From Chiloscyllium plagiosum (lineage: Eukaryota): DNA of 64,000 nucleotides. Each line of letters opens with the position of its first letter. Position 1 is the first letter of the stretch. The DNA lies in assembly GCF_004010195.1 (NCBI RefSeq), contig NC_057719.1, forward strand, positions 37,500,704 through 37,564,703. Reading direction: 5' to 3'. The notes under the pieces are model-generated. The model did not search any database. It saw only the letters and a list, made by a program, of their open reading frames with translations, and was not told the DNA's origin. Position numbers and translations under genes: made by a program. This document shows, in pieces, positions 7,415 through 63,750 of the stretch.

Positions 7415-8560
7415 TTTTTTCATTCAATGCATGTGGGTGTCTCTGACTATGCTGGCATTTATTGCCTATCCCTAGTTGCCCTTGGAAGGTGGTGGTGAGC
7501 TGCCTTCTTGACCTTGAAAGAAATGAACTGAAACCTACATTTCATTCTACAAGATGGAAGACTTAACAGCAATCTAGGTTTGTTCAATATATTGTATCAG
7601 TTGCATGCATGACACTGTGATCTTTTGTGTGATTCTGTGTTTTATGATCCTGCTCCACAGATACCTGATGAAGGAGCAGTGCTCCGAAAGCTGGTACTTC
7701 CAAATAAATCTTTTGGACTATCACCTAGTGTTGTGTGATTTTAAACTTCTTGAACTGCTGAAGTCCATTTGCTGTAAGTAAACCCACAATGCCTTTAGGG
7801 AGGGAGTTCCAGGATTTCGACCCAGTGACAGTGAAGGAATGCTGATATATTTCCAAATCAGGATTGTGAGTGGCTTGAGAAAGGAACTAGCTGGTGGTTT
7901 TGTTCCCACGTATTTGCTGCCCTTGTTTCTCTAGATAGTCGTGGTGATGTGTTTGGTAGGTGCTGTCCGAGGAGCCTTGGTGAATTTCTGCAGTGCATGT
8001 TGTAGATAATGCACACTGCCACTGATGAGCATCAGTGATGAAGGCAGTGAACGTTTGTTGATGTGGTGCCAATCAAGTTGGCTATTTGTCCTGGATGGTG
8101 TTCAGCTTCTTGAGTGTTGATGGAACTACACTCATCCAGACAATTGGGGAGTTTTCCATCACGCTCTTGACTTTTGCCTTGTACTTGGCAGACAGGCTTT
8201 GGGGAGTCAGGAAGCAAGTTACTCACTGCAATATTCCAAATCAATGACCTGCTCTTGTGGCTACAATATTTATATGGCAGTCCAGTGCTGTTTCTGGTCA
8301 ATGCTAAATTCCAAGGATGTTGATAGTGGGTGTTTCACTGCTGGTGATATCATTGAATGACAAGGGTCATGTCTAGTTCTCTCTTGACATTGTGCAGCAC
8401 AAATGATACTTGTCACTTGTCAGCCCAAGCGTGGATATTGTAACTGAGATGTCACAAATGATGCTGAACATTGTGCAATCGGCAGGGAAAATCCCAACTT
8501 CTGACGTCATGAAGGAGGGGAGGTCATTGATGAAGCAGCTGAAAATTGTTGGGTCAAAGC
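7415..8560 (-). mobile_element. L2/CR1-group LINE 3' fragment (RT to tail), interrupted by a PLE piece
   Basis: Minus translation PTIFSCFINDLPSFMTSEVGIFPADCTMF (decayed FADD motif); tail shared with 22750-23095, 45440-45680 and the SINE at 62360. Confidence 0.82.
7512..7745 (+). mobile_element. Penelope-like element terminus (family B) with hammerhead-like core
   Basis: Similar to 42885-43280 and 55735-55866; CTGATGA-A-GGAGC-AGT-GCTCC-GAAA-GCTG at 7665-7693; flanked by CTTCTTGA at 7504-7511 and 7746-7753. Confidence 0.8.
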
Positions 8561-11500
8561 CTTTCTCAAAGCAGGAGCAACAAGTCATGGTTTCCCACTG
8601 AATTCTGGATGTAAAGAAATGATTCTTACCCATGAGCAGCAAGAAGCCTGTGAAGGGGATCCTTGCTATTTAATCTCACCTTAAGCAACACCTGCTGGAT
8701 AGAAAGTAAATGCTGAGTATTTACAGAGCAGGTAGCTGGATCTGGAATCCTCAACTACTGCCTGGGCTTGCCTTTTAGTGCAGACAGAAAGCCAGACAGC
8801 ATGTCATGTTGTCAGCAGTGATCAGTCAAGAGGTCGGTCAAGCTATAGCATGTGCCAGCAGAGTATGTGGAAAACACACTGCATGTGCTCGAATCAAATA
8901 GCCTTCTCTTACTATCAAAGGAGAGCTGTTCTCAGTCAAGTGACTAGTCAACCTCATTCAGGGATTTCCATCACAGTACATCAAGGGCAGCCTCCGATTT
9001 CAGTCCAGTGGATTGAGCACAGACACTTTACTAGTTGGGCAAGTCAAGCATGGATTCCTCTCCTCAAACTGAGGGAAGGAGTCAAAGAACACCAGGCTTA
9101 GTTCTTGTTGCCCTATTGTGGGCTGTTTTCTCCTAGTATTTTGGAAAGGGGGGAATTGAGTGAAAATAGGTGGTAAGGATGTTAGTGCCAGTGCAGATGT
9201 GCACAAAGGGAGTGAGGCATCTTGAGTGAGTGAGTAGGCAGCGCAGAGGTCAGTCAGAGATCTTGGGGTAGGGAAGATTGGATGGGGTAAGAGCGAGTGA
9301 GGGAAGATACTACATGGAATTGAGAGTGTGTTGAAATGTGAGCTTTGGTGGGGAGTGTGTGCAGTAACAGTGAAGTTGATGGCACTCACTCTGGCAGAAC
9401 AGAGAAGGCCTTAATGCTCTTTCTATACTGTTGGGCATATCTGCAGTTTGTGGCGATCACAATGACCCACCGGTGACCAGACTGGCAGGGTCTGATGGCA
9501 TGGCTTATTCTGCTATTCCTATGGGAAATTGGCATCCCTTTTCTGTACAACCCTATCCATCCCTTCAGGTCCATCTGGGTGAACTAAGCTGCCTATTTAC
9601 CCTTATCTGTCACCTCTGGGGCAAATGTCAGGAACTGTGTAGGACAGCTCTGGATAGTGATTGGCTGGGTGCACTATGGCCTTTTAAAGATTGCACCACT
9701 TCCAGGAATGCTGGTATACCCTGGAATATCTCAGTAATGAGCATTCTTCTAGATAGTGAGTGGGAGAATTGGTCTAGCATCAGACAAGAGGAGGGCATAG
9801 GGGTGGGCAGATAGTTATGAGGTCAATTCGGGATGACAATGCAAGAAAGTTCACGAGGCCTGATAGAGACACCCTCCACAAAACTCATCAAAAACTACAC
9901 TTTGTTAAAATATGGTAAGCCCCATAAATTCTTGACTAATTAAAGGCCATGTATTACCTTAGATACTTTAGATACTCACTGCCAATTTGTCTCTAAATTT
10001 ACATTCTCTTTCCATTGTATATAACACAGCTCCATAAATTTGATTGACCCACAATGATGTTTGAAACATCAGAAACGTCTATTTGTAAGATGGTGTGTGA
10101 GAAGACCGTTCTTTTAAGTAAACCTGTTCCAATGTTGATAGGTTCTTAGCCACGTGAAACTGCCTGGATGGACTCAGATCAATTCTCTCATTTCTTCGCT
10201 GATCCATGCTGGACTCACAGTGAAACCATTGATCACGTTAGTTTATACTCTTGAGGTTCACGACATTGAAAAAGCAATTAATAATTCTTCATTTGTCTAA
10301 CCAATTTCTAAGAATCATATTAAATCACAGTGTAACAAGCTTCCAATTCTCTAATCTAAAGTGATTACACAATTACTCACAACTTCAGGTGAGGATGTGA
10401 GGTGGTTTCAGAATGGTACCACAAACAGGTGGTGTTTTAATCCTTCCCGCCTAGCAGAAACTCGGAGGGTGGGTGGTTAAAATGACAAAGTGGATTCACC
10501 TATTGACAACCTCCACTTTTCTCCATAGTCTTCATTTTTGACAGACAGGAAGGGCCTTCTGTTTCTTAATCCTTTTAACTTCACATTTTCCTTATCTACA
10601 TAAACTTAACTTAAAACGTTTGGGCTTAACTTTTCAGGTCAGAGTGACTGTTCATTAGACTACCATGGAATTACTATGAACTTTTTCCTGTGACCCTGTG
10701 GTAAGCAGGAATCTATTGCTGTATTCCTGTCATGTATCTGGGACACAAGTAAATAGACCGAGCAACAGCATGTTTCCTCGTCAATCAGACTGAAGAATCC
10801 TTACCAAGGCATGCAGAGTCTGAATCACAAACTAGAAGTAGAATATTTAATTTGAACTCAGATCATGCACAAAAAGTGAAATCCAGAGTGAAAGAAAGAT
10901 GGGAATCAAAGGCAAATAAATTAAAGAAACATTAAGTAGATATTTAAAATATAAATGTAAGTATTAAATTTAACAAATTTAATAATACTTAAAATTTGAA
11001 GGAATGAGACTCAAGACTTACAGAAATTAATTTTTAGTGCGAAAGGGGCCCTTAAGTGATTCAGACAAATTACACTGCTAAACATATATGTTTAGAATAG
11101 GCAAAACCTACCAGAATGATAGAGATTTACAGCACAGCAAGAGCCGTGCTGGCCTATCATGTTAGAACTGTCATCAGCTGTAGTCCCATTTCCCAGCATT
11201 TGGCCCATAGTCCTGTATATTATGGTGTTTTAAACGTTTATCTAAATACTCTTTGAACGTTATGATGGTTCCCATCTTTACCATCCTCTCAGGCACTGAG
11301 TTCCATCCACCCTTTGGGTGAAAAACTTCTTCCTTAAAAGTCCTCTAAACCATCTGTGCTTTGCCTTAAATCTATGTTCACTAATTATTGACTCCACTAC
11401 AAAGGAGGAAAGTTTCTTTCTATCTAACCTATCTATCCCTCTTATAACTTTATAAACCTCAATCAGGTCCCTTCTCAGACTTCTCTGTTCCAAGCAATAC

Positions 11501-11658
11501 AACACCAGCCTATTGAGTCTCTCTTCATATAGGAATTGCTCCAGCACAGCAAATTTCTGGCCAATCTTTTCTGCAGCCCCTCCAGTGCAATCATATCCTT
11601 CCTAGAGTGTGTTGACCAAAACTTCACACTGTACCCCAGCTGTAGCCTAACAATTTAT

Positions 11659-11995
11659 GGGCGGTACAGTGGCTCAGTGGTTGGCACTGCTGCCTCACAG
11701 CATCAGGGCCCCGGGTTCAACTTCTGCCTCGGGCTACTGTCTGTGTGGAGTTTGGACATTCTCCCCGTGTCTGCGTGGGTTTCCTCCGGGTGCTCCGGTT
11801 TCCTCCCACAGTCCAAAGATGTGCAGGTCAGGTGGATTGGCCATGCTAAATTGCCCATAGTGTTAGGTGCATTAGTCAGGGGTTAACATAGGATAAAGGA
11901 ATGGGTCCGGGTGAGTTACTCTTCAGTGGGTTGGTGTGGACTTGTTGGGCTGAAGGGCCTGTTTCCATACTGTAGAGAATCTAATCTAATCTAGT
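11659..11995 (+). mobile_element. HE1/V-SINE-like tRNA-derived SINE, full length
   Basis: Pol III A box TGGCTCAGTGG at 11670-11680, B box GGTTCAAC at 11714-11721, core GTGTGGAGTTTG...GGTTTCCTCCGGGTGCTCCGGTTTCCTCCCACAGTCCAAAGA, (AATCT)n tail. Confidence 0.93.
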
Positions 11996-12042: not shown

Positions 12043-12372
12043 GGAACTCGGATTTCACCAGTTTCCTCATTTCCCCTCCCCCCACCCTGTCTCAGTCAAA
12101 TCCATCAAATTCAGCACCGCCTTCCTAACCTGAGATCTTCTTCCCGACCTCTCCGCCCCCACCCCAGTCTGACCTATCACCCTCACCTTGACCTCTTTCC
12201 ACCTATCACATTTCCGACGCCCCTCCCCCAAGTCCCTCCTCCCTACCTTTTATCTTAGCCTGCAGGACAAACTTTCCTCATTCCTGAAGAAGGGCTTATG
12301 CCCGAAAAGTCGATTCTCCTGTTCCCTGGATGCTGCCTGACCTGCTGCGCTTTTCCAGCAACACATTTCCAG
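12043..12372 (+). mobile_element. Penelope-like element 3' fragment (family A) with hammerhead-like core
   Basis: End of the endonuclease ORF, pyrimidine-rich tract, CTGAAGA-A-GGGC-TTAT-GCCC-GAAA-AGTC at 12284-12311; 14-bp direct repeat TCCTGTATTCAATA at 12029-12042 and 12373-12386. Confidence 0.85.
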
Positions 12373-15619: not shown

Positions 15620-15970
15620 TATGTGGACTTCAACAGTTTCCTCATTTCCCCTTCCCCCACCTCACCCTAGTTCTAAACTTCCAGCTCAGCACTGTCCCCA
15701 TGACTTGTCCGGACTTGTCCTACCTGCCTATCTCCTTTTCCACCTATCCACTCCACCCTCTCCTCCCTGACCTATCACCTTCATCCCCTCCCCCATTCAC
15801 CCATTGTACTCTACGCTACTTTCTCCCCACTCTCACCCTCCTCTAGCTTATCTCTCCACGCTTCAGGCTCACTGCATTTATTCCTGATGAAGGGCTTTTG
15901 CCCAAAACGTTGATTTTGCTGCTCCTTGGATGCTGCCTGAACTGCTGTGCTCTTGCAGCACCACTAACCC
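15620..15970 (+). mobile_element. Penelope-like element 3' fragment (family A), decayed hammerhead
   Basis: Same layout as 12043-12372; CTGATGAAGGGCTTTTGCCCAAAACGTTGA from 15884. Confidence 0.8.
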
Positions 15971-18085
15971 ATAATTTACTCAGAGCTGAACAGGAGTGGT
16001 AGGACCAGGGCTCTATCCCAGTACTCTACATATTGAGCTGCCAATTACGGCTGTGTACCTTGAGGGAAGCTGAGCACTTTTCCATGTTTGGGCAGGGAAA
16101 TTGGAAAGGAGGGAGAACTCATTCCCAGCTGCTCCTGTATGTTTTCTAGTCATTCATCTCACTGATGCCTGAAATGTCTGATATGCAAAAATTTCCAATT
16201 CTTCTTCCCTCCCTACAGAATACTTGGAAGAGATGCCAACTTTCTGACACTTCATGCAGAGACATTCTCTACGCACTGCCCTTTGCAGTCGACAGAGGTA
16301 CTATTGTGCAACAAAGTAAAATGAGAAACTCAACACTGCCAATTTCTTGTCTTCCATTTTTAACTTCATTTTCTCCAAGCTTTGTTTGTGTGATATTTGC
16401 TCTGCAGGCCAAGGACAAAGTTTATTTCTTCGGCCAAATCTAGTGCTGTGCACTTCCCACAGAAGTATTTCAGGCTAAAGATCAGATTGCTCCTGCAAAT
16501 AGACAGGAGGATGACAATGCATGACTAAGCTGCACAGGTACAAAGTAAAGAAGGCAATTTGCAAACCTGAGCTGTGTTCATTTAAGCAATAGTGTCAGAC
16601 GACTCAGTACTCAAAACACTGTTGAGTGACTGGACCCCTCGACAAGGGGCTCAAAATTAGGCTAGTGCCACTTAAGGACAAACTGTGCTACTTAAAACCA
16701 GTCTTAAAGGGGAGGTGGATCCTGGCTGCAGCAGGTAGTGAATTGTTGGAGTACAGTCAGGTGGTGCAGAGAATGCCAGCTAGCAGGCTCATAGATATTG
16801 GAAAGCCCTGGGACATGAGGTGGTTAATAGCTTCTACAAGCTGCCAGGAGCCTGTCAAGATCATCCCTTAGAAGAAATGGCAGCAGGTACTCTGAAAGGA
16901 CTCTGCTAACGGTGTCACCCTGATGAAATGGATGCAGCACCAAAAGAAGCTTCACACAAATGGTCAAGATCAGTGAGTTCATTTTGTAATACCACGTTTT
17001 GCATCTTCAGAAATCTTCCATTCTGCTCACTGCACCTCACCTATATCATTAACTAGAATTCACTGTTGAATGCTGCTTTTGGAGCTTCCTCTCACCCTTA
17101 GCATTGCTGGAAGTTTCACACACACACACACATCTCAGTTTACATACACATACACAGCTACTCAACGGAAACGGCATATCACCCAGACACATCGCACCAC
17201 AATCACCAACACACCTCCTTTTCTCTTGCAGGGCATAACCAAAGGGAGTGAACATTGCTGTATGTCCTCAGCCCAATGGAAGAGACAGTGGTCACCATAA
17301 CTGGACCAGGATTTCTGAAGCCAGGTCATTACTGAGGCTGAGTCCTTAGAAGATTGCAGCAGGTTACTGGCTAACTCACCTTCTTATACTCCCCTTATCA
17401 CCCAATCTCTTGAAAGCTGCTAATGGTGTTTACCTGATACTTTCAATTGCTTGGTCGTGCAGACAGGGTATCTTTCACAATCAAAAGTGATGATACCTCA
17501 GAAATACGAGTAACAGATAAAGCTAATGTCTTAAGTTGCTTCTTTGCAGTAGACACACAAGTGGTATTTGCTGCTGAGAGGATCTTGCCCTCAAGCCAAA
17601 TCAAAACCTGCAGGATACCACACAAATAAATAATGAGGAATACGAATTTCGGTGCCATGTGATGAGAGTGTATAGGCCATTCATTCCAATGACCGATGCA
17701 CGATATCAAACAACATGGAACTTTGACTGTCCGCAGAGGATTGCATGCTCAACCAGTCTGTGCCTGAAAAACTTACAGCATGTTTCCAATATTGGATATG
17801 ATTCAGTTATTGGACAACATTGACTAAATGACCATGACAGAGCTAAGAATTTGGAAATCGATTTAAGATTATAAATCACTCACAGTGTGAATCATTTGCA
17901 TGTGCTAGAGGCTACATATGTTCACAAACAAGGCCCTGTTTTGCAGGTAAAAGGAATATGTCCACATATTGCATCAGGATTTGGAGACAGTGGATCCTTG
18001 TTGCATCCCCACGGCAACGCCCTGATCAATCAGAGTCTCCTTATCTGATTTAATTTTAATCAGTTAACTAAGATTGACAGTTAAT

Positions 18086-22283: not shown

Positions 22284-22593
22284 TGGGTGGCACGGTGGCT
22301 AGCACTGCTGCCTCACAGTGCCAGAGATCCGAGTTCAATTCCCGCCTCAGGCGACTGACTGTGTGGAGTTTGCACATTCTCCCCGTGTCTGCGTGGGTTT
22401 CCTCCGGGTGCTCCGGTTTCCTCCCACAGTCCAAAAATGTGTGGGTTAGGTGAATTGGCCGTGCTAAATTGCCCGTAATGTTAGGTAAGGGGTAAATGTA
22501 GGGGTATGGGTGGGTTGCGCTTCGGTGGGTCGGTGTGGACTTGTTGGGCAGAAGGGCCTGTTTCCACACTAAGTAATCTAATCTAATCTAATC
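22284..22593 (+). mobile_element. HE1/V-SINE-like SINE, young copy
   Basis: CpG-rich core, B box GAGTTCAATTCC, (CTAAT)n tail; short deletion in the A-box region relative to 11659. Confidence 0.93.
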
Positions 22594-26589: not shown

Positions 26590-26725
26590 ATAAAACAACG
26601 GACTACAGATGCTGGAGATCTAAAACAAACAAAAGCAGAAATTACTGGAGAAGCTCAGCAAGCCTGGCAGGATCAATGGAAAGAAAACAGTTTGCCTTTC
26701 GAGTCCAGTAACCCTTCTTCAGAAT
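26590..26725 (-). mobile_element. PLE terminus (family C) with degenerate hammerhead
   Basis: Minus CTGAAGA-A-GGGTT-ACTG-GACTC-GAAA followed by GATCTCCAGCATCTGTAG; relatives at ~5780-5895 and ~14810-14955. Confidence 0.65.
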
Positions 26726-26998
26726 TGAGTTATGGAAGTTTTCTGACGATACTCCATTTTTAAAAAAATTATTAATGAAAAAAATTGAAAAGGATATCAA
26801 ATAGGACACTTATTTCCTCTCAGTTTTATGGTTTTCTCAGACATATTTTCCCCATACTGCTATAACATGGAACTCACGCTTGATATTTTAGGGTGAAATG
26901 AGATTTCAACATTTTTCTTCTTGTGCTCTGATCTCTCAGGAATATATTTCCCCATTGAGATATTTCTTCAAACGATCAATGTCATCCTGGTCATTGTT

Positions 26999-27143
26999 AA
27001 AAATCACACAGCACCAGGTTATAGTCCAACAGGTTTAATTGGAAGCACACTAGCTTTTGGAGCGTCGCTGATGGACTATAACCTGGTGATGTGTGATTTT
27101 TAACTTTGTACACCCCAGTCCAACACCAGCTTCTCCAAATCAT
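26999..27143. mobile_element. Fold-back PLE terminus insertion (family B)
   Basis: GTTAAAAATCACAC..CCAGGTTATAGTCCA inverted against TGGACTATAACCTGG..GTGTGATTTTTAAC; 14-bp direct repeat TCCTGGTCATTGTT at 26985-26998 and 27144-27157. Confidence 0.88.
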
Positions 27144-27290
27144 TCCTGGTCATTGTTTTGCTTTTTGTTTTACTTTGGCAATTAGAAGTAGAGTTCTGAA
27201 GCATCAACATGAGTGAAACAAAGTGGGAGTAGAATTTCTGTGGCTGACCACTCTGTCTGCTGTAGTCAGTCTGATGGAAGACTGTCATAA

Positions 27291-27500
27291 GTTGAAACTT
27301 TATTGCTGGAACAGCACAGCAGGTCAGGCAGCATCCAGGGAACAGGAGATTCGACGTTTCGGGCACAGGCCCTTCTTCAGGAAGGGCCTGTGCCCGAAAC
27401 GTCGAATCTCCTGTTCCCTGGATGCTGCCTGACCTGCTGTGCTGTTCCAGCAATAAAGTTTCAACTTTGATCTCCAGCATCTGCAGACCTCACTTTCTCC
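27291..27500. mobile_element. Fold-back PLE terminus insertion (family A), perfect hairpin
   Basis: Perfect inverted arms 27289-27375 / 27381-27467; 16-bp direct repeat TGGAAGACTGTCATAA at 27275-27290 and 27501-27516. Confidence 0.92.
27348..27383 (-). ncRNA. Minimal type I hammerhead ribozyme motif, apparently intact (GUC site)
   Basis: Minus strand UUC-CUGAAGA-A-GGGC-CUGU-GCCC-GAAA-CGUC-GAA: core, stem II, palindromic ACGU stem III, stem I UUC:GAA. Confidence 0.75.
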
Positions 27501-29509
27501 TGGAAGACTGTCATAAACCCTGCCTACAGAAACAGCACAATAGCAATCAGGAGATCGATTGAAACTTTACAGAAAATTCTCTCTAATCTTTTCGGAAGTG
27601 TATGAATTTACAGGACCAAACAGATTTTGGAGCTCCAAAATATGAACCTTTGATACTTAGTCATTCGCTGCTACAATAAGGACTGCTCCCTTTGTCTTTC
27701 ACACCATTTTGAACCATTTGGTTCTTGCACATGTGTTTGCTGCATAACCTACTGACACATGTTGTAGATAAGACCTTGGATGCACCACAGAGCTGTGCAA
27801 TTAGATCTTCATTCAGTGCACTGAACTGTGACAAGCTGGCTGCTTCTCTTTATGAGCCAAAAAGCAACGTCAGCCAGAGGCTGAGTAATGAAGCTAAGAG
27901 TCCTGTGTAGACATAGGAGGAGTAAACCCCTGTACACGATCTGGTAGAAGGAAGCATTACTTGGGTGCGGAGTTCCAAAGTGAAATCCTGAAGAATTGAA
28001 ATGGCATGAATTAGTCCAACAGCAAGCATGATGATGTAACGAGGCTGGAGTTTGCCATTGCCAACCTGCTTGGAAGAAGGGTGAAGGAGGCCAGTGTCCA
28101 TGGAGCATGCAGGGAGGTTGTGAGCTGCTGCCACCAGGAATTTGTGGCATTTAGTTTCTGGTGGAGAGTCAGAAGCTGCAAAGAAATGAGGCACTAATAC
28201 TTGGAAATAAAGTGACTGCTGTATATGAGTAAGACCCTGAAACCCCCGATTAAACCTTAAGGGGAATATCAGAAATTTTTTACATGATTCTGGAATTCTG
28301 ATATTGCCATTTTTGTTATATTTTCCCACATTTCTTTCCGTTGCCCATGTTGGTCATTGAAAATTCCACCCAAAGTCTTTAAATCATTCTGGTCTCCTAT
28401 TGGTCTATGCACATGTTGTCATTGTTCTTGGGTTAATATTCCTTCTCCAGGGAGTTTTGTTGCTAAGATGAGTGTTGTTGCCATGGTAGCTATTGTTGCT
28501 GATCCATTGGTGAAGAAAGTAGGTCTCTGGGGCTAGTGGTCATCCTGTGCTCTGTAAAGGTAGTGAGATCACTTCCACTCCTGACACCATATTCCAAGTG
28601 CCATGTTTGATAGTCACCATAGGCTGTTCTCAAAGGCACTGGGTCAAGATCCTGGGATAGCCTCCCTAAGGACATTGTGGGAAAATGGGATGAGATTAAT
28701 TTATGATATCTAGTTGGCATGGATGAATTGGATCGAAGGGTCTGTTTCCATGCTGTATAATTTCTTGCAGCAGTTCAAGGCGGCAGCTCACCACCACCTT
28801 CTCAATGGCAACCAGGGATGGGCGATTAGTGCTGGCAACCCAACGATGCCCACACCCCACAAGTGAATAAATAACAAACTTATAGCAAAGGTGAAGTTCA
28901 TATGATTATGACAAGCCAGCAAATACATGAGGTGGAATTGTCTTGCATCAAACACAGCTTTCTGATGCAGCAAAGTGGCCATTGGCTACACTATGTGAGT
29001 GTTATCTACATATTGACTGTTGGCAGTTATCCAATCAAATAGTGGTTCCAGCTGAGCCTGATCGTGTGCTTGCTCACTGGTTACACATGCACTTCCAGCA
29101 GATCACCAATGACGAGCTGGAAATCTGGCTTATTTTCTTTTCATGAAAGTTAAAGCTCCCTGTAGTTAATCTACTATTGTTTCAGGTGTAATTAATGAAC
29201 TAGAAACTTAACGAGAAAATTTTCACTGCCTGTGTGATTCAGGCACTCAAAACATTTTCAATTATCTCAAAAATTCCTTTAGAAAACGTATTTTCCCTTA
29301 TCCAAGTGTTACTGAAATCAATTACTACCATACATGTAAAAACATGGAAGAATTTATATTTTAATCTGACGCCTTTCACAACATTATTCAGGATTTAATC
29401 ATTGCTGTGAGCAGGAAACCTATTAGCAACTTTGGACATAGCATACCTCGATAAAAGTATTTCCGCTCCTCAGGAAAAATACTCCTTACCTCAGAAAAGA
29501 TGTTATTGC

Positions 29510-29985: not shown

Positions 29986-30296
29986 ATGATCAAATTACCT
30001 GACTCATTGGTGTTAGGGAAGGTGTAATGTAGGTGATTTCAAGAAAAGGAATTTACTCTTCCACTTTTGTCTCCACACGAACAGGGGTTCAGATTGAAGG
30101 GTCACCTGAAAGATAGCAATTTTTTATTACGCTGGAGTTTCACCCTAATGCCTCTGGCTTATGGTTGCAGCCCAGAATCTTAATGTGAAAGTACTATGCA
30201 GAACCAAGAGAGTGAAAAAGTTTCAGGGGTCTCCACCAAGGTGAAGAATCTGGCTGTGGATTATCCGGTCAGTTTAACTTGATCCATTTAAAGTCA

Positions 30297-30500
30297 AAAT
30301 GTGTGGTGCTGGAAAAGCACAGCCAGTCAGGCATCCGAGGAGGAGGAGAGTTAACGTTTCGAGCAGAAGCTCTGATGAAGAGCTTAAGTGCGAAATACCA
30401 ACTCTCCGGCTCCTCGGATGCTGCCTGACCTGCTGTGCTTTTCCAGCACCACACATTTTGACTCTGATCTCCAGCATCTGCAGTCCTCACTTTCTCCTAA
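30297..30500. mobile_element. Fold-back PLE terminus insertion (family A), older
   Basis: Imperfect inverted arms; degenerate CTGATGA..GAAA at ~30372; 18-bp direct repeat TTGATCCATTTAAAGTCA at 30279-30296 and 30501-30518. Confidence 0.88.
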
Positions 30501-42884: not shown

Positions 42885-43280
42885 ATGTATCATGTAAAAC
42901 TCTGTTAGCTCACTTTTTAGATTAGAAAAAATCTAAACATCATGGCACAGACAGAGAATACGGGGGCTTCAACATATTGTCTAGCTAACACCCATTCTTA
43001 CAGTTAACCTGAGAATGCAACTTTTAAAAAAAGGTTTTGTGATTTACACGTGAAAGTAGTGAAACTATCATGATATTCGAACAGATGAAAGACTCAACAG
43101 ACAATCCAGGTATTTTTCAATGTATAATTTCAGTTATATCACACTGTAAACTTTTGCTATAAATTCCGTGCCATACAATTGTGTCCTCCACAACCACCTG
43201 ATGAAGGAGCGACGCTCCGAAAGCTAGTGTGCTTCCAATTAAACCTGTTGGACTATAACCTGGTGTTGTGTGATTTTTAA
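42885..43280 (+). mobile_element. PLE terminal repeat (family B)
   Basis: Ends in AAACCTGTTGGACTATAACCTGGTGTTGTGTGATTTTTAA like 7700 and 55790; contains a hammerhead core. Confidence 0.85.
43195..43229 (+). ncRNA. Minimal type I hammerhead ribozyme motif, apparently intact (CUA site)
   Basis: CAC-CUGAUGA-A-GGAGC-GAC-GCUCC-GAAA-GCUA-GUG; palindromic AGCU stem III; stem I CAC:GUG. Confidence 0.75.
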
Positions 43281-43521
43281 TTATGTCTCTTAAAGGTATA
43301 CTGACATACTGACTGTGAAACATAGGAGGTCACTATGTGACTTACATATATTTTTAATATCATTTATTTTTGAATTTTTGATTTTTGTATTAATGTCATT
43401 GGTTTCTTTTTCTGTGTCTGAAGAGTTTAATAATTAACTTGTAGATATAGCTGTAGCCATAATGAGTTCTTTTATACCAATATGTGAAAGTTAACTTTCA
43501 GAACAAATGGCTTTTTGTATA

Positions 43522-45682: not shown

Positions 45683-46000
45683 GGGAGAAAGTGATGACTG
45701 GAGATCAGAGTCAAAGAGTGTGGTGCTGGAAAAGCACAGACAGTCAGGCAGCATCCGAACAACAGGAGAACGGTGCTGAGTCTGAGGGTTGGGACTGAGG
45801 GGGGGGGGGGGGAGGGGAAATGAGAAAACTGGTGAAATCCACTTTGATCCCATGTGGTTGGAGGGTCCCAAGGTGGAAGATGAGGCGTTCTTTCTCTAGG
45901 CATCAGGTGGTAAGAGTTTGGCAGTAGAGGTGGTCCAGGATCTGCATGTCCTTGGCATTAGTGGGAGGGGGGGTTAAAGTGTTCGGTCACGGGACAGTGG
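45683..46000 (-). mobile_element. PLE fragment: GIY-YIG endonuclease C-terminus plus terminus, hammerhead region deleted
   Basis: Minus translation approximates EHFNPPSH..LEKERLIFHLGTLQPHGIKVDFTSF; inserted in an L2-like tail. Confidence 0.82.
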
Positions 46001-46804: not shown

Positions 46805-46930
46805 GGAATGTGAGGATTGCAGACGCTGGAGATCAGAATCGAGAGTGTGGTGCTGGAAAAGCACAGCCGGTCAGGCAGCAGCCGAGGAGCAGAAGAATCA
46901 ACCTTTTGGGCATAAGCCCTTCATCATGAA
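46805..46930 (-). mobile_element. PLE terminus (family A), decayed hammerhead
   Basis: Minus ATGATGAAGGGCTTATGCCCAAAAGGTTGA then the family A tail. Confidence 0.8.
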
Positions 46931-46934
46931 AGAT

Positions 46935-48827: not shown

Positions 48828-49035
48828 AAAGGAGTGTGGTGCTGGAAAAGCACAGCAGGTCGGGTAGCATCCGAGGAGCAGGAGAATTGATGTTTCAGGC
48901 ATCAGTTTCCTGATGAAGGGCTTATGCCCAAAACGTTGATTCTCCTGCTCTTCAGATGCTGCCTGACCTGCTGTGCTTTTCCAGCACCACTCTTCTGACT
49001 CTGCTCTCCAGCATCTGCAATCTTCTCTTTCTCCT
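48828..49035. mobile_element. Fold-back PLE terminus insertion (family A), decayed hammerhead
   Basis: Inverted arms around CTGATGAAGGGCTTATGCCCAAAACGTTGA (from 48910); direct repeat TGTTCTCAGT at 48818-48827 and 49036-49045. Confidence 0.85.
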
Positions 49036-50676
49036 TGTTCTCAGTGAATAATGACATTACAACTTATATTCCTTATTGTCTTTATGGCTTTGGACAGTAC
49101 AAGCTCTCTGGTTACCATGTCAGTATATAAAACAAATGGAATAAGTTTTAGTTGGGAGTTGCAATTTAAACACACAGATCTGAGAAGGCACTAGCATCCT
49201 ACAGGAGTGTTATTTTTATTATTATCTTCATAATATAAAAATTACAAATTATTCACAGCTCAACATCATTCTAATTTCAATTATTGTTAATGCAAACATG
49301 ATAAATATTCTCAAATCAATTAATACAATGACATCTCAGATTAGCCACTTAATCTCAAACACACACTGTAATTCACCCTGAAGTAAATCCTGTAGTGAAA
49401 CTCAATAAAACAGTGAAAGGATTTTTTGTAGCAAGGAACCATAAATGTGATAGGCCTGTGGAACACTCCATTGAAAGTTTGGTTTAGTTATATTTAGTTA
49501 TATTTTTATAATGGACAAGGCAGGTATATTTGCTGTGCCTCATTTAAGGCCTAAGGAAGTTGTTCGAAACCGGACTGTTCAAAAGCATTTCTCTAAGAAA
49601 CCACATGGAGGATCCAGAGTCTGAAGAATATAGTATTGACATTGGCAGGACTTAAGTAGCCCTGGTAGGTTACCATGACTGCAGCCAAATTCTTGGTGCA
49701 ACTAGGGAAACAAGAGATAGATATTCCCTGTTGGACAGAGAAACTGCAAAGGAACTTCAAAATCTTTCTCATAGCAATGGATTTGAAAATTGTTCAGAAT
49801 TTAAAAAAGGAACTATTTTTCAAATGCATACAGACATTGATGCAAATCAATACTGACTAAAAGTAAACTTTTAAAAAATGCTTATTCCTCCAATAGTATC
49901 AATGTACTCCTCATGGAACCTCTGCTATTTTCCTGACTGGCATTAATATCTTAATGTTTTGTGTATAGTGTAATTCAATCTGTGATATGAATCTTGATTT
50001 TAACTCAGCCCATTATTTATCAGGCAGGAAAGGCTTGACAGAGGAGTTAAAATTTGGAATTTATTTCTCTCAGCTACAACCCATATGTTCCTGTCCACCA
50101 TATTTAAAATGGTGGTGAATAAATGGCAACAATGAGGCTCCTGGTACAAGCAACTAAGGCCCTATTTAGCTGTCAAAAGTCAGGTCTAATGATGTTACAT
50201 GATCTAATCCTAAATACTGACCTTAACCTTTTCAGATCAGCAAGGCCTCCATGTGCCCAGACCCAGCTCCTCTGGACAGCTATACTCTCAGTCAGAAGTG
50301 GCATCTTTCAGATGAGATCGTCTTGCTGGTTAGCCTTTCATGAGATGTGGGCATCACTGGTGTGACCAGGATTTGTTACCCATCTCTAATTACCCTTGAA
50401 CTGAGTGGTTTGCTAAGCCATTTCAGAGTACAGTTGGATCTGGAGCCACATGAAGGCCAGAACAGGTAAGGACATCGATTCCTTTCCCTAAAAAAGGACA
50501 ACAATGAACCAGATAGGCTTTTACAACAATTGATGATCGTTATTAGTCTCCATTACTGAGACTAGGCTTTATATTTATTAACTAACTTAAATTATGCCAA
50601 TTGTCTTGGACACACATCCCTAAAGTATTAGCCTGGGTATTCGCTTTACTAAGAATCAGAATCCCTACAGTGTGGA

Positions 50677-51465
50677 AATATAAATGATTTGGATGCGAGC
50701 ATAAGAGTTACACTTAGTAAGTTTGCAGATGACACCAAAAGTGGGGGTGTAGTGGATAGCGAAGAGGGTTACCTCAGATTACAACAGGATCTGGACCAGA
50801 TGGGTCAATGGGCTGAGAAGTGGCAGATGGAGTTTAATTCAGATAAATGCAAGGTGCTGCATTTTGGGAAAGCAAATCTTAGCAGGACCTATACACTGAA
50901 TGGTAAGGNNNNNNNNNNNNNNNNNNNNNNNNNNNNNNNNNNNNNNNNNNNNNNNNNNNNNNNNNNNNNNNNNNNNNNNNNNNNNNNNNNNNNNNNNNNN
51001 NNNNNNNNNNNNNNNNNNNNNNNNNNNNNNNNNNNNNNNNNNNNNNNNNNNNNNNNNNNNNNNNNNNNNNNNNNNNNNNNNNNNNNNNNNNNNNNNNNNN
51101 NNNNNNNNNNNNNNNNNNNNNNNNNNNNNNNNNNNNNNNNNNNNNNNNNNNNNNNNNNNNNNNNNNNNNNNNNNNNNNNNNNNNNNNNNNNNNNNNNNNN
51201 NNNNNNNNNNNNNNNNNNNNNNNNNNNNNNNNNNNNNNNNNNNNNNNNNNNNNNNNNNNNNNNNNNNNNNNNNNNNNNNNNNNNNNNNNNNNNNNATTTA
51301 AAAGGCATTTGGATGGGTATATGAATAGGAAGGGTTTGGAGGGATATGGGCTGGGTGCTGGCAGGTGGGACGAGATTGGGTTGGGATATCTGGTCGGTAT
51401 GGACGGGTTGGACCAAAGGGTCTGTTTCCATGCTGTACATCTCTATGATTCTATGACTCTATATG
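50677..51465 (+). mobile_element. Young CR1 3' half spanning an assembly gap
   Basis: [32 protein letters not shown] before the gap; CR1 3' UTR and CTATGA tail after it. Confidence 0.93.
50909..51295. other. Assembly gap
   Basis: Run of N. Confidence 1.
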
Positions 51466-55734: not shown

Positions 55735-55866
55735 GTCCATAACTACCTGATGAAGGAGCAGCGCTCCGAAAGCTAGTACTTCCAAATAAACCTGTTGGAC
55801 TATAACCTGATATTGTGTGATTTTTAACTTTGTCCACCCCAGTCCAACACTGGCTCCTCTACATCA
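55735..55866 (+). mobile_element. PLE terminus (family B)
   Basis: Matches 43190-43280 and 27080-27143. Confidence 0.85.
55744..55778 (+). ncRNA. Minimal type I hammerhead ribozyme motif, apparently intact (CUA site)
   Basis: UAC-CUGAUGA-A-GGAGC-AGC-GCUCC-GAAA-GCUA-GUA; stem I UAC:GUA. Confidence 0.75.
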
Positions 55867-56391: not shown

Positions 56392-56394
56392 GAG

Positions 56395-56860
56395 AGAGTG
56401 CTTGTGGTGGTGCGTGGAATGTAGGGTGGGGTGCTGGTGGATAGAAACGAAGTTGGTCATTCAGACTAACTGATCAGATTGTGAGAATACCAGAACAATG
56501 GTGCATCTCCTACCAGACGTAAAAGGACAGACACTGGGATGGGGAACAAGGACATGATCACATGCAAAAAGAAAAGGAAGAAATGGTTCAGAGTTTGAAG
56601 GTGTTGAACTCAATGTTATGTTCAGAAGATTGTAAAGTGCCTAGTCTGAAGAGGAGATGTTGTTCCTCCAGTTTGCGCTGTGTCTTACTGGAACACCACA
56701 GCATACCAAGTACAGATATGTGGGCATGCGTGCAGGGCACGATGTTCAAATGACCAGCTACGGAAAGGATGGGGTTATGCTTGTGCACAGACTGGAGATG
56801 TTCTGCAAAGCGGTCACCCAGTCTGCGTTTGGTTTCTCCAGTGTAGAGTCGACCACTTGG
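56395..56860 (-). mobile_element. Penelope-like element GIY-YIG endonuclease C-terminus and 3' region
   Basis: ORF ..VAGHLN..HISVLGML..QRKLEEQHLLFRLGTLQSSEHNIEFN; upstream GETKRRLGDRFAEHL remnant. Confidence 0.85.
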
Positions 56861-58952
56861 CTTATCTTGACTGTAGTTGATGACATTCTGTTACACTGTA
56901 TTACGTGCCAGGCTTAAATCTTTGGAATTGTCAAGACAGAGAGAGCCTAAGGCCCACAGTGGAGAGCATGTCTATTAAAACTCAAAAGAAAGGAGAACTA
57001 GCGGTAGATCAGGCATTAACAACTAAATAAAAGGTATAACTTGGATCTCAGCTGAAAACATTAGAAGAAATAAAGGAGAGATCTGGGAGAGAATGAGTTA
57101 AAAGTAGATTGAGGACTACAATAAATTCATTTTCAATAGGAGGGTATTATGGGGAGAGGGGTATCAAGAATAGCAGAGTTACAGCATAAAAAGGAAGAAA
57201 GGTTCAAAGAACATTTGTTGTATTAAAAATGACGACTTGCGAGTAACATTTGATCAGTGAATGAGAGAGCCTTTGAATTTTCCCATCTGATCTTAAAAAA
57301 ACTAGGAAATACATAAGCATTATTTTTCTTCTGAAAATAGGCAATTTTTCTACTTCTGAACCATTAAAACTAAAGAATGGCATAGCTGAAAAATGCAGCA
57401 TTGCTTTGATCATATTATATTAGCTTCTCAGGTGAATAATATTATGAGACCCTTGCAAATGCCTCTTTATAGGGTAGATGTAAAGCAGTACCATTCTTCC
57501 TGGGTTTGGGGGAGTTACAATCTAGATGCCAAAATTTAGGACAGCAATTATCACATCCAGTTAAGAATTCAAGAGATTTTGTTTTACCAGAGACAGTGGT
57601 TAGACCATCAGGTTGCTACCACATGGAGTAGTTGGGATAAATAGTACAAATGCCTTTAAGGGGAAACAAGATAAGTACAAGGGAGAAACAGTCGAGGATT
57701 TGTAGATAATGTTAACTGAAGTAGAATGTGATGAAGCTGGTGTGGTGCAAAAATATTATCACAGGTACATTGGGTGGACCATTTCCTGGAAAATAAAATT
57801 CTATGAGCTGAAATTTATGGGTCACCCTAGTTCCATCGCTGCCTCTCCAACAGCCCTCCTCTCACTTCATCTGAATCTTTGGGAGCCCGGCCCATGATCC
57901 TATTGGTGGCCTTGTTGATATTTAATGCTGAGAGCAGCGTATGGGGTTGGAAATGGGACTTCATTCCCTCGGAAGGAGATCTCATCTCCAAGAGCTGCCA
58001 ACCAATGGCATGCCAGCTTCTGTAGTCCCAAAAGTGGAACAAGAGCAGTGGGCACTACCACCCCAACCAGAAGATGTAACATTATACAGTACTGGAGGAA
58101 ACGTGGCAAGCAGCAATGGTGCAGTTCGAGTTGAATGATTTTCTCATAGTTACTTACTGCTGTAGAGCAAGGAATGATATATATAAAATGAAACATTTGG
58201 GTTCAGATATCATTGGTTAATGATGTCTTCTGAATCCCTTGATGTCTTACTTTATTGTAGCAGTTGGCAGAAAGTCACTTGGAAAGGATAAAACATGAAG
58301 CTTTCTAAAATGTAGACGCAAATTCCCCTTATCCAGAGCTTCCTCAGCAGTAAAACTGCCCTGTTGCTTCAATTGAGCACTAAATAGATTTTTAGACAAT
58401 GTTCTGTGGATAGAAAGGTTAGCACACAAGTCTGTGTCAGCCTGAGAATAAGATGCATTTTCATTGCCAAATGTATGCATTTTTCTCGGAGGAGAAATGA
58501 GTACAAGTATTATGCAGAAGGTCAGAAGGAACCACCTCCATCAGTCAGAACACACTTGTGCATTGAGTGTGTCCACAAAAATATGTGGGGAGTTAAGATT
58601 TCCAAAGACTTCCTTTTGTTCATTGTATTATGCCAAAAATAAGAAGAGCACCAAGAAAAATTACCTCTACACTTAAGACAAAGTTCATTCCTATTTCGTG
58701 AATGGTTCATATTTACATGAGTAACTAACACTGTGGCTAGCCAAGCTGACACTCAATAGATTTCCTCCATAAATCACAAAATAGTCAATTGTTGGCATTG
58801 AAATAAAATACCAAAGCATCCACTTTAGTTGTTAAGGCTGGATGGAAGATATTTCATGGTTAAGACTGCGTCGTTCATCTCATTCACTGGGAAAGTACAC
58901 CTTAGAAATTTGACAGTTGGTTAAAACAATTCTCATTTGGTGTATCAATATT

Positions 58953-59263
58953 GATTAGATTAGATTACTTACAGTGTGGAAACAGGCCCTTCGGCCCAAC
59001 AAGTTCACACCGACCTGCCGAAAAGCAACCCACTCAGACCCATTCCCCTACATTTACCCCTTCACCTATCACTACGGGCAATTTAGCATGGCCAATTCAC
59101 CTGACCTGCACATTTTTGGACTGTGGGAGGAAACCAGAGCACCCGGAGGAAACCCACGCAGACACAGGGAGAATGTACAAACTCCACACAGACAGTCACC
59201 CAAGGCTGGAATCAAACCCAGGTCTCTGGTGCTGTGAGGCAGCAGTGCTAACCATTGTGCCGC
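58953..59263 (-). mobile_element. HE1/V-SINE-like SINE
   Basis: Close reverse-complement match to 22284-22593, with (AATCT)n tail. Confidence 0.93.
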
Positions 59264-60064
59264 TCAAACTAGTCAAGGAAGAATTGTCCGTGTATCATCT
59301 CAGTTATTAGATACAATCTGTTGAAGGATCGCTATAATTTTTCTCTTTCCTTCACAGTCCTACTATCAAATAGGTCACATGACCCTCAATGTTTACACTT
59401 CAGGTCCATTCCATGAGCCCACACAGGCAAGTGCAGCATCTCCTGATCAGCCACATGCAACTGTACTAAGCCAGTGACCAATGTCCCCTTTGGGATGGTC
59501 AAGCGACACATTAATTTCAGAATCGATGTGGACAGTGAGACTGAGAGAGCCAGAAACTTCAGTGCCGTGGCTCAACTTTCCTGTGTCGGTGATCTCAGAC
59601 AGGTGTGGCCATCAGGACTCCCCCAGACCAGCTATTGACTCATTAAACACAAGGCATACAATTCCCTCAATATGCCACCAATGGAACCTATAGGTCTTTG
59701 TGTTATTTATTTAGGGACAGCCACAGCACTCTTTGGTGCCACAGTGTTTCATCCTCACACTCCCACCAGCACCAGAACTCTCCTAATGACCAATATTCAT
59801 CAGAAATAATCACCCACTGTAACATGGCTGATGGCACCAGTAAAGAAACTAAGTCTCAGGAAACTGACTATAATGCAAGCCACGCTAAGCAGACATCAGC
59901 GTCCAGAAACTAAGATCCAGATACCTGAAGTTTGTGCAACTTAAATGCCCCAGCAACAGCCTCCCAGATTGTGGATGGCTTGTTGTCCTTTACAGAAGCT
60001 GGCACTGCTAAGAAGAGATGCCCTGATTGTGGCAGACATGGTGGAGAACAAGGCTTCCTCATAC

Positions 60065-61380
60065 AAAGGATGGGATCTATCCTAGGATCCTCTGGGAAGC
60101 AAGGGAAGAGATTACCGAGCCTTTGGCATTGATCTTCAAATCATCATTGTCTACAGGAATAGTGCCTGAGGACTGGAGGATAGCAAATGTGGTTCATTTG
60201 TTCAAAAAGGGTAGTAGAGACAACCCTGGTAATTACAGACCAGTGAGTCTCACTTCAATTGCTGGTAAAGTGTTGGAAAAGGATATAAGAGATGGTTATA
60301 AATCCTATCGAGAAAAGAATAATCTGATCAGGGACAGTCAGCACGGTTTTGTGAAGGGTAGGTCGTGCTAACGAATCTTATTGAGTTTTTTGACAAAGTG
60401 ACCAAACAGGTTGATGAGAGTAAACCGGTTGATGTGGTGTATACGGATTTCAGCAAGGCATTTGATAAGGTTTCCCACAGTAGGCTGCATTCAATAAGGT
60501 TCCCCACAGTAGGCTATTATACAAAATGTGGAGGAATGGGATTGTGGGAGACATAGCAGTTTGGATCAGTAATTGGTTTTCTGAAAGAAAACAGAGGGTT
60601 GAAGTTGGTGGAACATGTTCATCTTGGTGTCCAGTTACTAGCGGCATACTGCAAGGGTCGGTGTTGGGTCCACTGCTGTTCGTCATTTTTATAAATGACC
60701 TGGATGAGGGCTTAGAAGGGTGGGTTAGTAAATTTGCGGACGACACTAAGGCCGATGGAGTTGTGGATAGTGACGAAGGATGTAGTAGGTTGCAGAGAGA
60801 CATAGATAGGATGCAGAGCTGGGCTGAGAGGTGGCAAATGGAGTTTAATGTGGACANNNNNNNNNNNNNNNNNNNNNNNNNNNNNNNNNNNNNNNNNNNN
60901 NNNNNNNNNNNNNNNNNNNNNNNNNNNNNNNNNNNNNNNNNNNNNNNNNNNNNNNNNNNNNNNNNNNNNNNNNNNNNNNNNNNNNNNNNNNNNNNNNNNN
61001 NNNNNNNNNNNNNNNNNNNNNNNNNNNNNNNNNNNNNNNNNNNNNNNNNNNNNNNNNNNNNNNNNNNNNNNNNNNNNNNNNNNNNNNNNNNNNNNNNNNN
61101 NNNNNNNNNNNNNNNNNNNNCACAACTTTAAAGTGAGGGGAGATAGGTATAAGACAGATGTCAGAGGTAGTTTCTTTACTTAGAGAGTAGTAAGGGTATG
61201 GAATGCTTTGCCTGCAATGGTAGTAGATTCGCCAAGTTTAAGTGCATTTAAGTCGTCATTGGACAGGCATATGGATGTACATGGAATAGTGTAGGTGGGA
61301 TGGGCTTCAGGTTAGTATGACAGGGCGGCGCAACAGAGGGCCAAAGGGCCTGTAGTGCATTGTAATGTTCTATGTTCTAT
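60065..61380 (+). mobile_element. CR1 ORF2 RT to 3' end spanning an assembly gap
   Basis: [62 protein letters not shown] tail. Confidence 0.95.
60857..61120. other. Assembly gap
   Basis: Run of N. Confidence 1.
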
Positions 61381-61879
61381 AAGTGCAACATGTTGACATC
61401 CTCCAGCACCAAATGGACAGCTCAGAAATCTAGGCACCAGGGAAGCTTTCATGCTGAGGCATTGCACTTTAATGTCCTTTAACGATTCACATTCAAGGCT
61501 CACTGCAGCTCTCCTGCTGAAAGCCTGGACCCACCCACCCCTTGTACTTTTACAATGGCCCATCTGAGAAAATGGCAAGTGGTAGTGTCTCTCGGCCAAT
61601 AATCCACAGGCCCTGGCTAATGCTCTGGGAATATGGGTTCAAATCCCATCGCAGTATGTGATGTCATTGTAATGTAATAAATCTGGAATTAAAACAAGTC
61701 TAATGGAACTGAAATTGTTGTCAAACACAAATACCCTTCGGGAAGGAAATTTGCTGTCCATACCTAGTCTAGCCTGTGTGTGACTCCAGACCCACAGTAA
61801 TGTGCTTAACACCCGCAAGGCCTCCGAGTGGGTGCAGTTTCATCCTGTTCTTTAGACTTTGATGTATTTTGGTGTAACT

Positions 61880-62290
61880 GAATGGGTTGCTAGATTCATT
61901 CAGTTACACCAAAATGCAACAAAGTCTAAAGAAGAGAATGAAACTGGACAGACACCCTGTATTGGTCTAGGTACCAGGAATTACAGCAGCAAAAATCAGC
62001 CCCTTTTACCCTGGCAAGACATTTTTCCTAACCTCTCGGGGCTAGTGGCAAAATTAGGAGAGCTGGCTCACAGACTTGTCAAACAACAGCCTGCCATAGT
62101 CATACACAGAGTTATACCTTACAGACAATGTCTCAGACGCTACCACCAGCATCATCATCACTAGGTATGTTCTATCGCATTGGCAAGGCAGAGTTGCCCT
62201 GGGAGTTTTCAGCATTGATCCCAGACTCCATGAAGTCTTGTATCTTCAGCTCAAACAGGGAGTAAGGAACTTCCTGTTGATTAGTCCACC
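61880..62290 (+). mobile_element. LINE 5' fragment (AP-endonuclease N-terminus)
   Basis: NLSGLVAKLGELAHRLVKQQPAIVI resembles the NxxGL..PDIVxxxE motif of LINE endonucleases. Confidence 0.65.
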
Positions 62291-62359: not shown

Positions 62360-62695
62360 ATGATGGTCTAATGGTATTACCGCAAGACAATTAATCTGGA
62401 AACTCAGCTAGTGTTCCAGGGATCCAGGTTCAACTCCTGCCAAGGCAGATGGTGGAATTTGTATCTGATAGTCTGGAATTAAGGGTCTTACATAACCATG
62501 GAGACATTGCTGATTGTCATAAAAGCCCATCTGATTCACTAATGTCCATTAAGGAAGGAAATTGCCATCCTTACTTGGTCTGGCCTACATGGGACTCCAG
62601 ATCCACAGCGATAAGGATGACTCTTAACTGCCTTTGGGGCAATAAATATTGGCCCTGCCAGGGATGCTCACGCCTTGTGAGTGAGTAAATAAATA
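62360..62695 (+). mobile_element. tRNA-derived SINE with L2-like tail
   Basis: TGGTCTAATGG A box, GGTTCAACTCC B box, tail matching the LINE end at 7415. Confidence 0.78.
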
Positions 62696-63635
62696 AAACC
62701 GCTAGATAGGGTCTGCAGGGAACCAACAACTGGCAAATTCTCAAACTACTAATCAAGGGCAATTAGAGACAGGTAACAAATGCAGTCCACATAGTGGCTG
62801 GAGAAATGACAGGGAACATTTCCAGCCATTTCTGTTTTTTGTTCTTTGGTTTCCTTGATTAGAGAGAAGGTTGTTGCCAAGCAGCGTGGTGAGTTTCGCT
62901 AATCAATATCGAGTCACCAATTAAAGGGGATTATTGCTTGTTCAACATCTTAATAGCAGCTCAACTCACTTCAATAAATATTCAGCTTACTACCTGACAC
63001 TATATGAGCTTGGCGTTGAGAATTCTCAACATAAACGGCAGAACATTTTCTGTCCTACTACAATGTGCAGCAGGCTCCAAGATGGTGCTCCAGGTTGGAC
63101 ACTGGGCACCAACATCCTGGGTCACATTCCATGGGTATTAGCTACAAGCACCAATGTCCACAGGCACTGGCACTTGTCATGTACGAGCATCTAAAGTTCT
63201 TCATGGTGTAGGTCTGAACCATGTACAGGACGTATCTACTTCAATGCAGCACCTTTGGACTGTACTAGCAACTATCATTATCATTCTGCTGCAAGGACAC
63301 TGTGTAGTTAAGGACACCAACTCAGCACATGGGCTGGACCAGGCTACACCTCTATGCTCTTGGCTCGTTGCCACAGCGCGCGCTCACTCCAAATCTACTT
63401 TCCTTGCGTTGTCTTGCCTTGCCTTTCTAACTGTGCCCCCTCAGGCAGTGATACCAGTTCTTCTGTCTTACCATTTTAATTCCATTACAAAGGCAAGAAG
63501 CTTGTCTTCATTGTCAGCAGGTGTTAGTAAAGTCAGGAGAGCTGGCCTTTACTCAGGGAGCCTGGCAAACCAAGTCCAGAGCAGCCTCTGGTACCAGTCT
63601 AGCAGCTTAGAACTGGTCAGTTGGCTATTTAGAGT

Positions 63636-63750
63636 GGGAGAAAGTGAGGACTGCAGATGCTGGCGATCAGAGCTTAAAAATGTGCTGCTGGAAAAGCGCA
63701 GCAGGTCAGGCAGCATCCAAGGAGAAGGAGAATCGACGTTTCGGGCATAA
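63636..63750 (-). mobile_element. PLE terminus (family A) truncated inside the hammerhead
   Basis: Minus CTTATGCCCGAAACGTCGATTCTCC...CCTCACTTTCTCC; CUGANGA half is missing. Confidence 0.85.

Follow-up and report, generated by a model that had tools for sequence, protein, structure and literature searches.

Short repeats carrying minimal type I hammerhead ribozymes are scattered through the 64,000-nucleotide stretch of DNA from the shark Chiloscyllium plagiosum analysed here (NCBI RefSeq assembly GCF_004010195.1, contig NC_057719.1, positions 37,500,704 to 37,564,703 of the forward strand; hereafter the window). To judge from the sequence, these motifs sit in the pseudo-long terminal repeats (pseudo-LTRs) of Penelope-like retroelements with a Neptune-type linker, and they are real, abundant new members of an already known class that are largely decayed in this window. 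Most of the copies are probably short by-products of the element, made when reverse transcription starts internally, in the tail of the repeat, and runs off the front of a mostly uncut RNA that would begin at the 5' edge of the motif. Positions are numbered from C3 of CUGANGA, which is +1, the base before it being 0; the predicted cut falls after +28 in family A and after +29 in family B.

The assignment to Penelope-like elements follows from two direct repeats separated by 3.85 kb, from GIY-YIG ends and a tail with two alternative ends, and from the presence of inverted copies and target duplications. For example, at locus L307 the family A2 motif is present in both direct repeats, 3,850 bases apart, and the protein starts after the first repeat, while at L309 the GIY-YIG end precedes the second. 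Broken copies contain a C-x4-C-x2-C linker (read in family A and in related frames) and fragments of GIY-YIG and of a YIDD reverse transcriptase, and family B terminates in a related C-terminus. The linker of family A points to the Neptune type, whose marks are a CX2-5CxxC linker ahead of GIY-YIG and a CCHH motif, and by such linker features the elements may be of Neptune or of Nematis affinity. The best Pfam matches were E 3e-4 for GIY-YIG and E 0.087 for RVT_1, both short of the curated cut-offs, and a PDB sequence search returned nothing relevant. None of the 20 long open frames fetched in the search for an intact element was intact; all of them were assembly gaps read as X. The element bodies at L302-L321 are gaps of 2.4-5 kb, and hence full-length copies are under-counted in the assembly. 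The initial annotation had linked the family A termini to GIY-YIG ends, and this holds: the protein end of family A is found at 45819-45956(-) (65% over 46 amino acids, E 2e-17), in a copy that has lost its ribozyme, and the copies at 12043 and 15620 retain just the last codons of the protein. The tail has two preferred 3' ends about 35 bases apart, the long form being present in 53 of 141 family A copies, and in family B the 3' ends cluster at +84-89 and +120-122. The first in-frame AUG of family A2 lies past the tail, at about +167. As a separate observation, an AUG within the CUGAUGA of family A2 starts a short frame that is not in phase with that of the main protein (L307:1762-1797(+)); A1, with CUGAAGA, does not have this AUG.

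The motifs had been read as minimal type I hammerheads in Penelope-like terminal repeats, and the core, stem II, the stem III pair, stem I covariation and the marks of the element are all present. Covariation was counted over 12 hand-picked representatives of families A-E, in which stem II was demanded by the search and stem I was not; because a MAFFT alignment shifted the families against each other by one column, the descriptor was used to tally the pairs. Stem I is paired in 12, 11, 10 and 8 of the 12 at its four positions, and each of the first three shows three Watson-Crick types (C:G, U:A and A:U at the first), as covariation across families would have it. Stem II likewise shows several pair types, pairing there being a search requirement. 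The palindromic 15.2-16.2 pair of stem III is C:G in families A, C and D and G:C in family B, with the palindrome kept. The extra A in the core is confirmed: the added base between 9 and 10.1 is A in all families except D, where it is U. The 10.1-11.1 pair is G:C in 9 of the 12 representatives, and the others look like products of CpG decay. In the two largest subfamilies, A1 and A2, stem I has just 2 base pairs (bp) followed by a U-U mismatch, and fold models that find stem II stable give this stem a pairing probability below 0.05. A double-hammerhead dimer fold is possible, yet it is the lowest-energy co-fold in none of seven cases, the model ignoring core contacts. An Rfam scan of the window gave 14 matches with E values up to 10, none of them to a hammerhead family, and the minimal form, which does not have the helices that hammerhead models expect, would explain the miss. 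A fourth hammerhead family was also met outside the window (L105:1454(+), L073:6928(+)), with a stem II of 6 bp, an extra U replacing A and an A:U pair closing stem I. Further subfamilies with different stem I and II pairs were seen at L134:7539(+), L182:5566(+), L095:1165(-) and L102; in L095 and L102 the motif is located 116-250 bases after the GIY-YIG stop.

A strict descriptor (CUGANGA, an optional extra base, a stem II of 4-6 bp, GAAA) matches the window at six places, namely 7665+, 12284+, 26722-, 27380-, 43198+ and 55747+, against a mean of 0.065 and a maximum of 1 in 200 simulated windows of the same dinucleotide make-up. All ten sites named in the initial annotation, together with both of its half-cores, are indeed repeat ends of three families at the coordinates it gave. 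Its claim that they share one formula for the core and stem II needs narrowing: core plus stem II are kept at six of the ten, but the motif is complete, with a palindromic stem III and U-H, at only three (27380-, 43198+ and 55747+; null 0.005), and the other seven deviate.

The evidence for where the element's RNA starts comes from the 5' ends of the copies. Copies were chosen by their tail alone and their 5' ends mapped; 125 of 164 matches were kept in family A (2 were excluded as near an edge, and 37 for N, identity below 85% or family C-like tails) and 57 of 57 in family B. In family A the rate of 5' ends per base at risk is 0.32% at -99..-6 (12 events) and rises to 7.1% at -5..+1 (31 events); further in it is 1.95% at +2..+18, 0.09% at +19..+28, 1.4% at +29..+33 and 0.28% at +34..+45. 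Family B has no event at -59..-16 and a rate of 5.3% at -15..-5 (14 events), followed by 0.19% at +19..+29 and 1.6% at +30..+34. Genome-wide, where a junction-type match was defined by two mismatched bases before the given position, there are 6,265 matches at -3, 468 at the cut (76,565 tails), 119 at +27 and 545 at +32. The corrected rates are 1.63% at the cut, 0.62% at +27, 1.27% at +32 and at least 11% at -3, this last with a denominator from 14 sampled copies. A count of 2,700 at -3 for A2 was not used as a rate because it takes in a subfamily in which the native bases upstream already satisfy the pattern (at least 5 of 30 loci). The word ATTC is identical at -3 and at the cut, yet junctions are far commoner at -3. 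In families A and C, stem I opens with the -3 base, which we take to be the A of an initiator-like word as well. Similarly, 19 of 25 family C loci inspected by eye begin no more than 5 bases from the core, and among copies extending into the protein start most have their 5' end between -19 and +95, with only 5 of 55 rows beyond -100 (one of the five is a self-match, and the rows include a few duplicates). The pile-up of 5' ends at the ribozyme's 5' edge thus likely marks the start of the element RNA.

These patterns are consistent with the following course of events. Transcription would be driven by an internal promoter, of the kind described with an initiator for Penelope (PMC2377424), with its start near -3 for families A and C and roughly between -5 and -15 for family B. 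Reverse transcription would then begin internally at the two tail ends, the behaviour shown in vitro by the anole element. In the last repeat, priming would yield long, often truncated copies; priming in the first would leave just 95-130 bases to copy, so that the product, a solo unit, runs off the RNA end. Its complementary DNA (cDNA) would then join the target through 1-6 bases of microhomology, or fold back. Selection acting on the master elements would preserve the motif itself, whose cleavage would be slow and would take place in a dimer or with help from the protein of the element, and single scattered copies would be mostly inactive.

The same 5' pile-up could reflect the chemistry of joining rather than an RNA end, if, inside the folded motif, the enzyme were to stall or jump, its cDNA end then pairing with AT-rich target overhangs or with itself; this we consider rather unlikely. 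In its favour, 17 of the 25 cases with a target duplication show 1-6 bases of microhomology at -3 junctions, inverted joints make up 73 of 138 junctions near the core, and the anole endonuclease is described as favouring ATT (PMC11167929). However, the same ATTC word at +30 attracts far fewer junctions, stalls would be expected 3' of the stems, where the rate is in fact lowest (+19..+28), and the family B edge is without ATT. A different reading of the inner junctions is that cleavage by the ribozyme affects a considerable fraction of the template RNA in vivo, copies beginning at the cut being its footprint. The small excess at +29..+33 in family A (1.4% per base, with 0.2% in the flanking positions; 8 and 5 events, p 0.0007), that at +30..+34 in family B (1.6% against 0.4%, 4 and 4 events, p 0.04), the genome-wide rate at the cut compared with that at +27, and six rows continuing into the protein start that begin at +29..+32 would all suit it. 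Yet +32 is nearly as frequent genome-wide (partly through small deletions), and inspection by eye of 30 family A loci at the cut showed only 6 clean cases, while 4 proved to be whole copies with mutations and 20 were joined to an inverted or partial copy of the element itself. Many of the fold-back joints at +29 would fit a cDNA end pairing as stem I does, with no RNA cut. At the exact cut of family B there are 81 matches, of which about 13 of 30 inspected are real junctions, a rate of about 0.15%. Moreover, 110 of 125 family A copies read through the cut, and hence the templates were mostly uncut. The cleavage footprint is equivocal, being weak in family A and not seen at the exact site in family B, and cutting of a sizeable share of templates is judged unlikely.

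It is very unlikely that the short ribozyme-plus-tail units form an independent non-autonomous element, similar to a retrozyme or a short interspersed nuclear element (SINE), that is itself transcribed and recopied. Such units do reach a very high copy number with target duplications of their own, RNA reads are found on both strands, and retrozymes have been proposed to derive from repeats of this kind (bioRxiv 10.64898/2026.07.22.740005); but solo units carry the same subfamily variants as long copies, their 5' ends are ragged, and a single motif cannot release a unit. In the window there is no head-to-tail array of solo units, nor were tandem units each with a complete hammerhead found, the copies being dispersed or inverted and kilobases apart. 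That the scattered copies are working ribozymes which cut host transcripts and are kept for that purpose is the least credible explanation, despite about 37 complete motifs per Mb and reads from such copies in poly(A) RNA. Core positions change about as often as the tail, stem I scarcely pairs in the A1 and A2 fold models, and the reads span the cut site. Those reads come from single-cell poly(A) raw runs, presumably of the same species as the window, one with 1,595 and the other with none; they are of both strands and may derive from any of many copies.

Several points weigh against the view that most copies are run-off products of an RNA starting at the motif. The position bins were drawn after the data had been seen, and the genome-wide patterns are unequal in stringency, with one denominator that depends on the 14 sampled copies. 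Target preference shapes the -3 peak, since the majority of the junctions there that have a target duplication were joined through AT or ATTC microhomology. The front edge of family B is broad and without a clear initiator word. Since the element bodies are assembly gaps, no intact protein could be read. No pile-up of molecule starts or ends was seen among the 1,595 single-cell reads, a library type that is a poor test of RNA 5' ends and of cleavage. Lastly, the single untemplated bases at -3 junctions are G in 6 cases and A in 2 (p about 0.06), and G precedes the junction in 20 of 37 non-fold-back cases (p 0.03; one locus is duplicated, and the sample was chosen to exclude C and T); an untemplated G copied from the cap is suggestive only, a weak signal.

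In an unselected sample of 1.005 Mb (the window plus 100 stretches of 10 kb) there are 77 matches to core plus stem II, compared with 1-3 in each of five simulations, and 37 complete motifs, compared with none. Exact patterns in the 3.56-Gb genome number 80,312 for family A, 15,966 for family B and 227 for the old family C, with no match to the reversed controls; they sum to at least 96,505, or about 27 per Mb. By extrapolation, complete motifs would number about 124,000 and family A-like tails about 550,000, some family C tails being counted among the latter. Hence the proposal of a very large set of self-cleaving motifs is right as to the count and overstated as to self-cleavage, because inserted copies decay about neutrally, because a lone copy has no stem III partner, because stem I is so short in the two largest subfamilies, and because most copies derive from RNA that was read through the cut site. 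The decay is seen in the inserted copies, which lose the three CpG sites that master elements retain inside the motif; among 62 family A copies, G12 is A in 18. Non-CpG core positions are changed in 22 of 618 cases and tail positions in 53 of 1,110 (p 0.27), so that this comparison of core and tail in the 62 copies detected no selection on inserted copies. Decay therefore looks neutral, and we read this as selection that acts on the replicating element and is not detectable on the inserted copy.

The motif class was described by Cervera and De la Pena 2014 (PMC4209133), with fish Neptune and Poseidon elements included, and was reported there to have low activity as dimers and none as a monomer. 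The shark motifs resemble these metazoan Penelope-like hammerheads in their type I topology, in a stem III consisting only of the palindromic pair, in the extra base between 9 and 10.1 and in G10.1-C11.1, as well as in forming families with compensatory changes and in occurring mostly as single truncated copies, with opposite-strand pairs. They differ in having a stem II of 4-6 bp and a stem I of no more than 2-4 bp, and the exact count here is far above the approximately 9,000 motifs of Xenopus and 4,000 of the coelacanth given in that paper. No shark was found in the text consulted or in its supplementary table, and literature searches, whose scope excluded subscription journals and repeat databases, found no published description of shark Penelope hammerhead families. 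In the anole Poseidon element PAc, as described by Frangieh et al. 2024 (PMC11167929), there are two internal reverse-transcription starts that match the tail, the main template is uncut RNA, and the hammerhead cuts only with the protein; the shark elements likewise have the hammerhead in the pseudo-LTR and two 3' ends defining the tail. PAc, however, is of the Poseidon clade and its reading frame begins at stem II, whereas family A2 has its first in-frame AUG far downstream and a cysteine linker in the protein. Features shared with Neptune/Nematis-type elements (Craig et al. 2021, PMC8557442; Arkhipova et al. 2013, PMC3846280) include a C-terminal GIY-YIG after a CX2-5CxxC linker, direct and inverted pseudo-LTRs, a 30-40 bp tail, 5' truncation, target duplications, solo pseudo-LTRs and an initiator-like word in the repeat. 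The latter paper explains the few solo repeats of the rotifer elements by suggesting recombination or deletion; here, in contrast, most copies are solo units, and these have target duplications of their own. Non-LTR retrozymes (PMC7229834) are likewise short repeats that encode no protein and carry type I hammerheads in very many copies, but they are tandem units of 170-400 bases, whereas the shark units lie dispersed, singly or as fold-backs, and their 5' ends are ragged. Axolotl retrozymes are reported to hold 126,247 type I motifs (PMC7229834), about 4.5 per Mb with the genome given as 28 Gb, compared with about 27 exact matches per Mb here. In the Li et al. 2026 preprint (bioRxiv 10.64898/2026.07.22.740005), one chondrichthyan was sampled, solely with regard to tandem retrozymes.

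The individual copies in the window show how far the motifs have decayed. Two family B copies carry a complete minimal hammerhead: a 5'-truncated copy at 42890..43286(+), with C3 at 43198, a stem I of CAC:GUG and a predicted cut after 43226, and a solo ribozyme plus tail at 55736..55854(+), which begins at -10 and has C3 at 55747, a stem I of UAC:GUA and a predicted cut after 55775. The third complete core lies in the minus arm of a family A3 fold-back insertion with a 16-bp flanking direct repeat (27286..27501; C3 at 27380, predicted cut between 27353 and 27352), where the 5' strand is supplied by the inverted arm and the fold model hides the core inside another hairpin; a type III fold using the inverted arm was rejected by eye, as its stem I is unable to close. 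An old-subfamily copy of family B at 7522..7748(+), with C3 at 7665, is predicted to be inactive and has G at position 17 (7693). The 5'-truncated copies of A1 (12043..12372(+)) and A2 (15620..15975(+)) each retain the last protein codons and the pseudo-LTR; the former has C3 at 12284, a stem III palindrome broken at 12308 and a 14-bp target duplication, and the latter has C3 at 15884 and G12 changed to A. Stem III is also broken in a family C solo ribozyme plus tail at 26592..26728(-), with C3 at 26722. The minus arm of a family B fold-back insertion at 26996..27142, with a 14-bp target duplication, begins at +11 and thus lacks CUGAUGA (the half-core at 27060). Two fold-back insertions of family A are found at 30296..30498, a decayed one with C3 at 30372, stem II broken and an 18-bp flanking direct repeat, and at 48832..49035, where the plus arm has C3 at 48910 and G12 changed to A, with a 10-bp target duplication. 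In all, six insertions in the window have flanking direct repeats of 10-18 bases. At 45693..45983(-) a family A GIY-YIG C-terminus is joined to the tail at +31, two bases beyond the predicted cut, and the ribozyme is gone, which may be due to a deletion or a template jump. A family A solo ribozyme plus tail at 46806..46933(-) begins at about -5 and has C3 and G12 changed (the site named at 46927), and sequence comparison places another family A solo copy at 63637..63751(-), beginning at +12 and without CUGANGA (the half-core at 63740). A GIY-YIG endonuclease fragment of 100 amino acids from a related Penelope-like family, absent from the initial annotation, lies at 56591..56890(-), and its terminal repeat would lie in the adjoining N gap on that strand; a first look gave 79,509 candidates for this fragment genome-wide.

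Other repeats are also present in the window. Many reverse-transcriptase fragments of another type of long interspersed nuclear element (LINE), which we take to be CR1/L2-like, occur at 250-2800, 3717-4211, 50653-51450 and 60027-61240. A hairpin with arms of about 34 bp and sub-threshold Rfam microRNA matches (61842-61939) lies at the start of the frame 61856-62164, which resembles a LINE endonuclease. A dispersed 200-bp family, SINE-like by appearance and 74-89% alike, is found at 11669-11868, 22287-22486, 36480-36679 and 59058-59266, and two identical 47-base copies 129 bases apart form a local duplication at 46158-46333.

Hammerheads of this class have been proposed to process tandem RNA (PMC4209133), their function in Penelope-like elements has been called unclear (PMC8557442), and the motif was dispensable for insertion in vitro (PMC11167929). 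What is added here is a mapped front end of the RNA and evidence for mostly uncut templates, both of which can be tested, and some 100,000 complete motifs allow statistics that go beyond those of small genomes, by which the templates are mostly uncut and the RNA likely starts at the motif. A wider reading is finely balanced and tilts slightly towards doubt: the promoter start would be the first base of the ribozyme, the capped RNA would open with the hammerhead, and the roughly half a million family A ends would preserve, like fossils and to the single base, where one Penelope RNA begins, at which two internal sites it is primed and where it occasionally cuts itself, with a hammerhead density that would be the highest among the animal counts compared. 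If this is true, the cut would remove a capped leader of 31 bases, and it could switch off translation instead of releasing a template.

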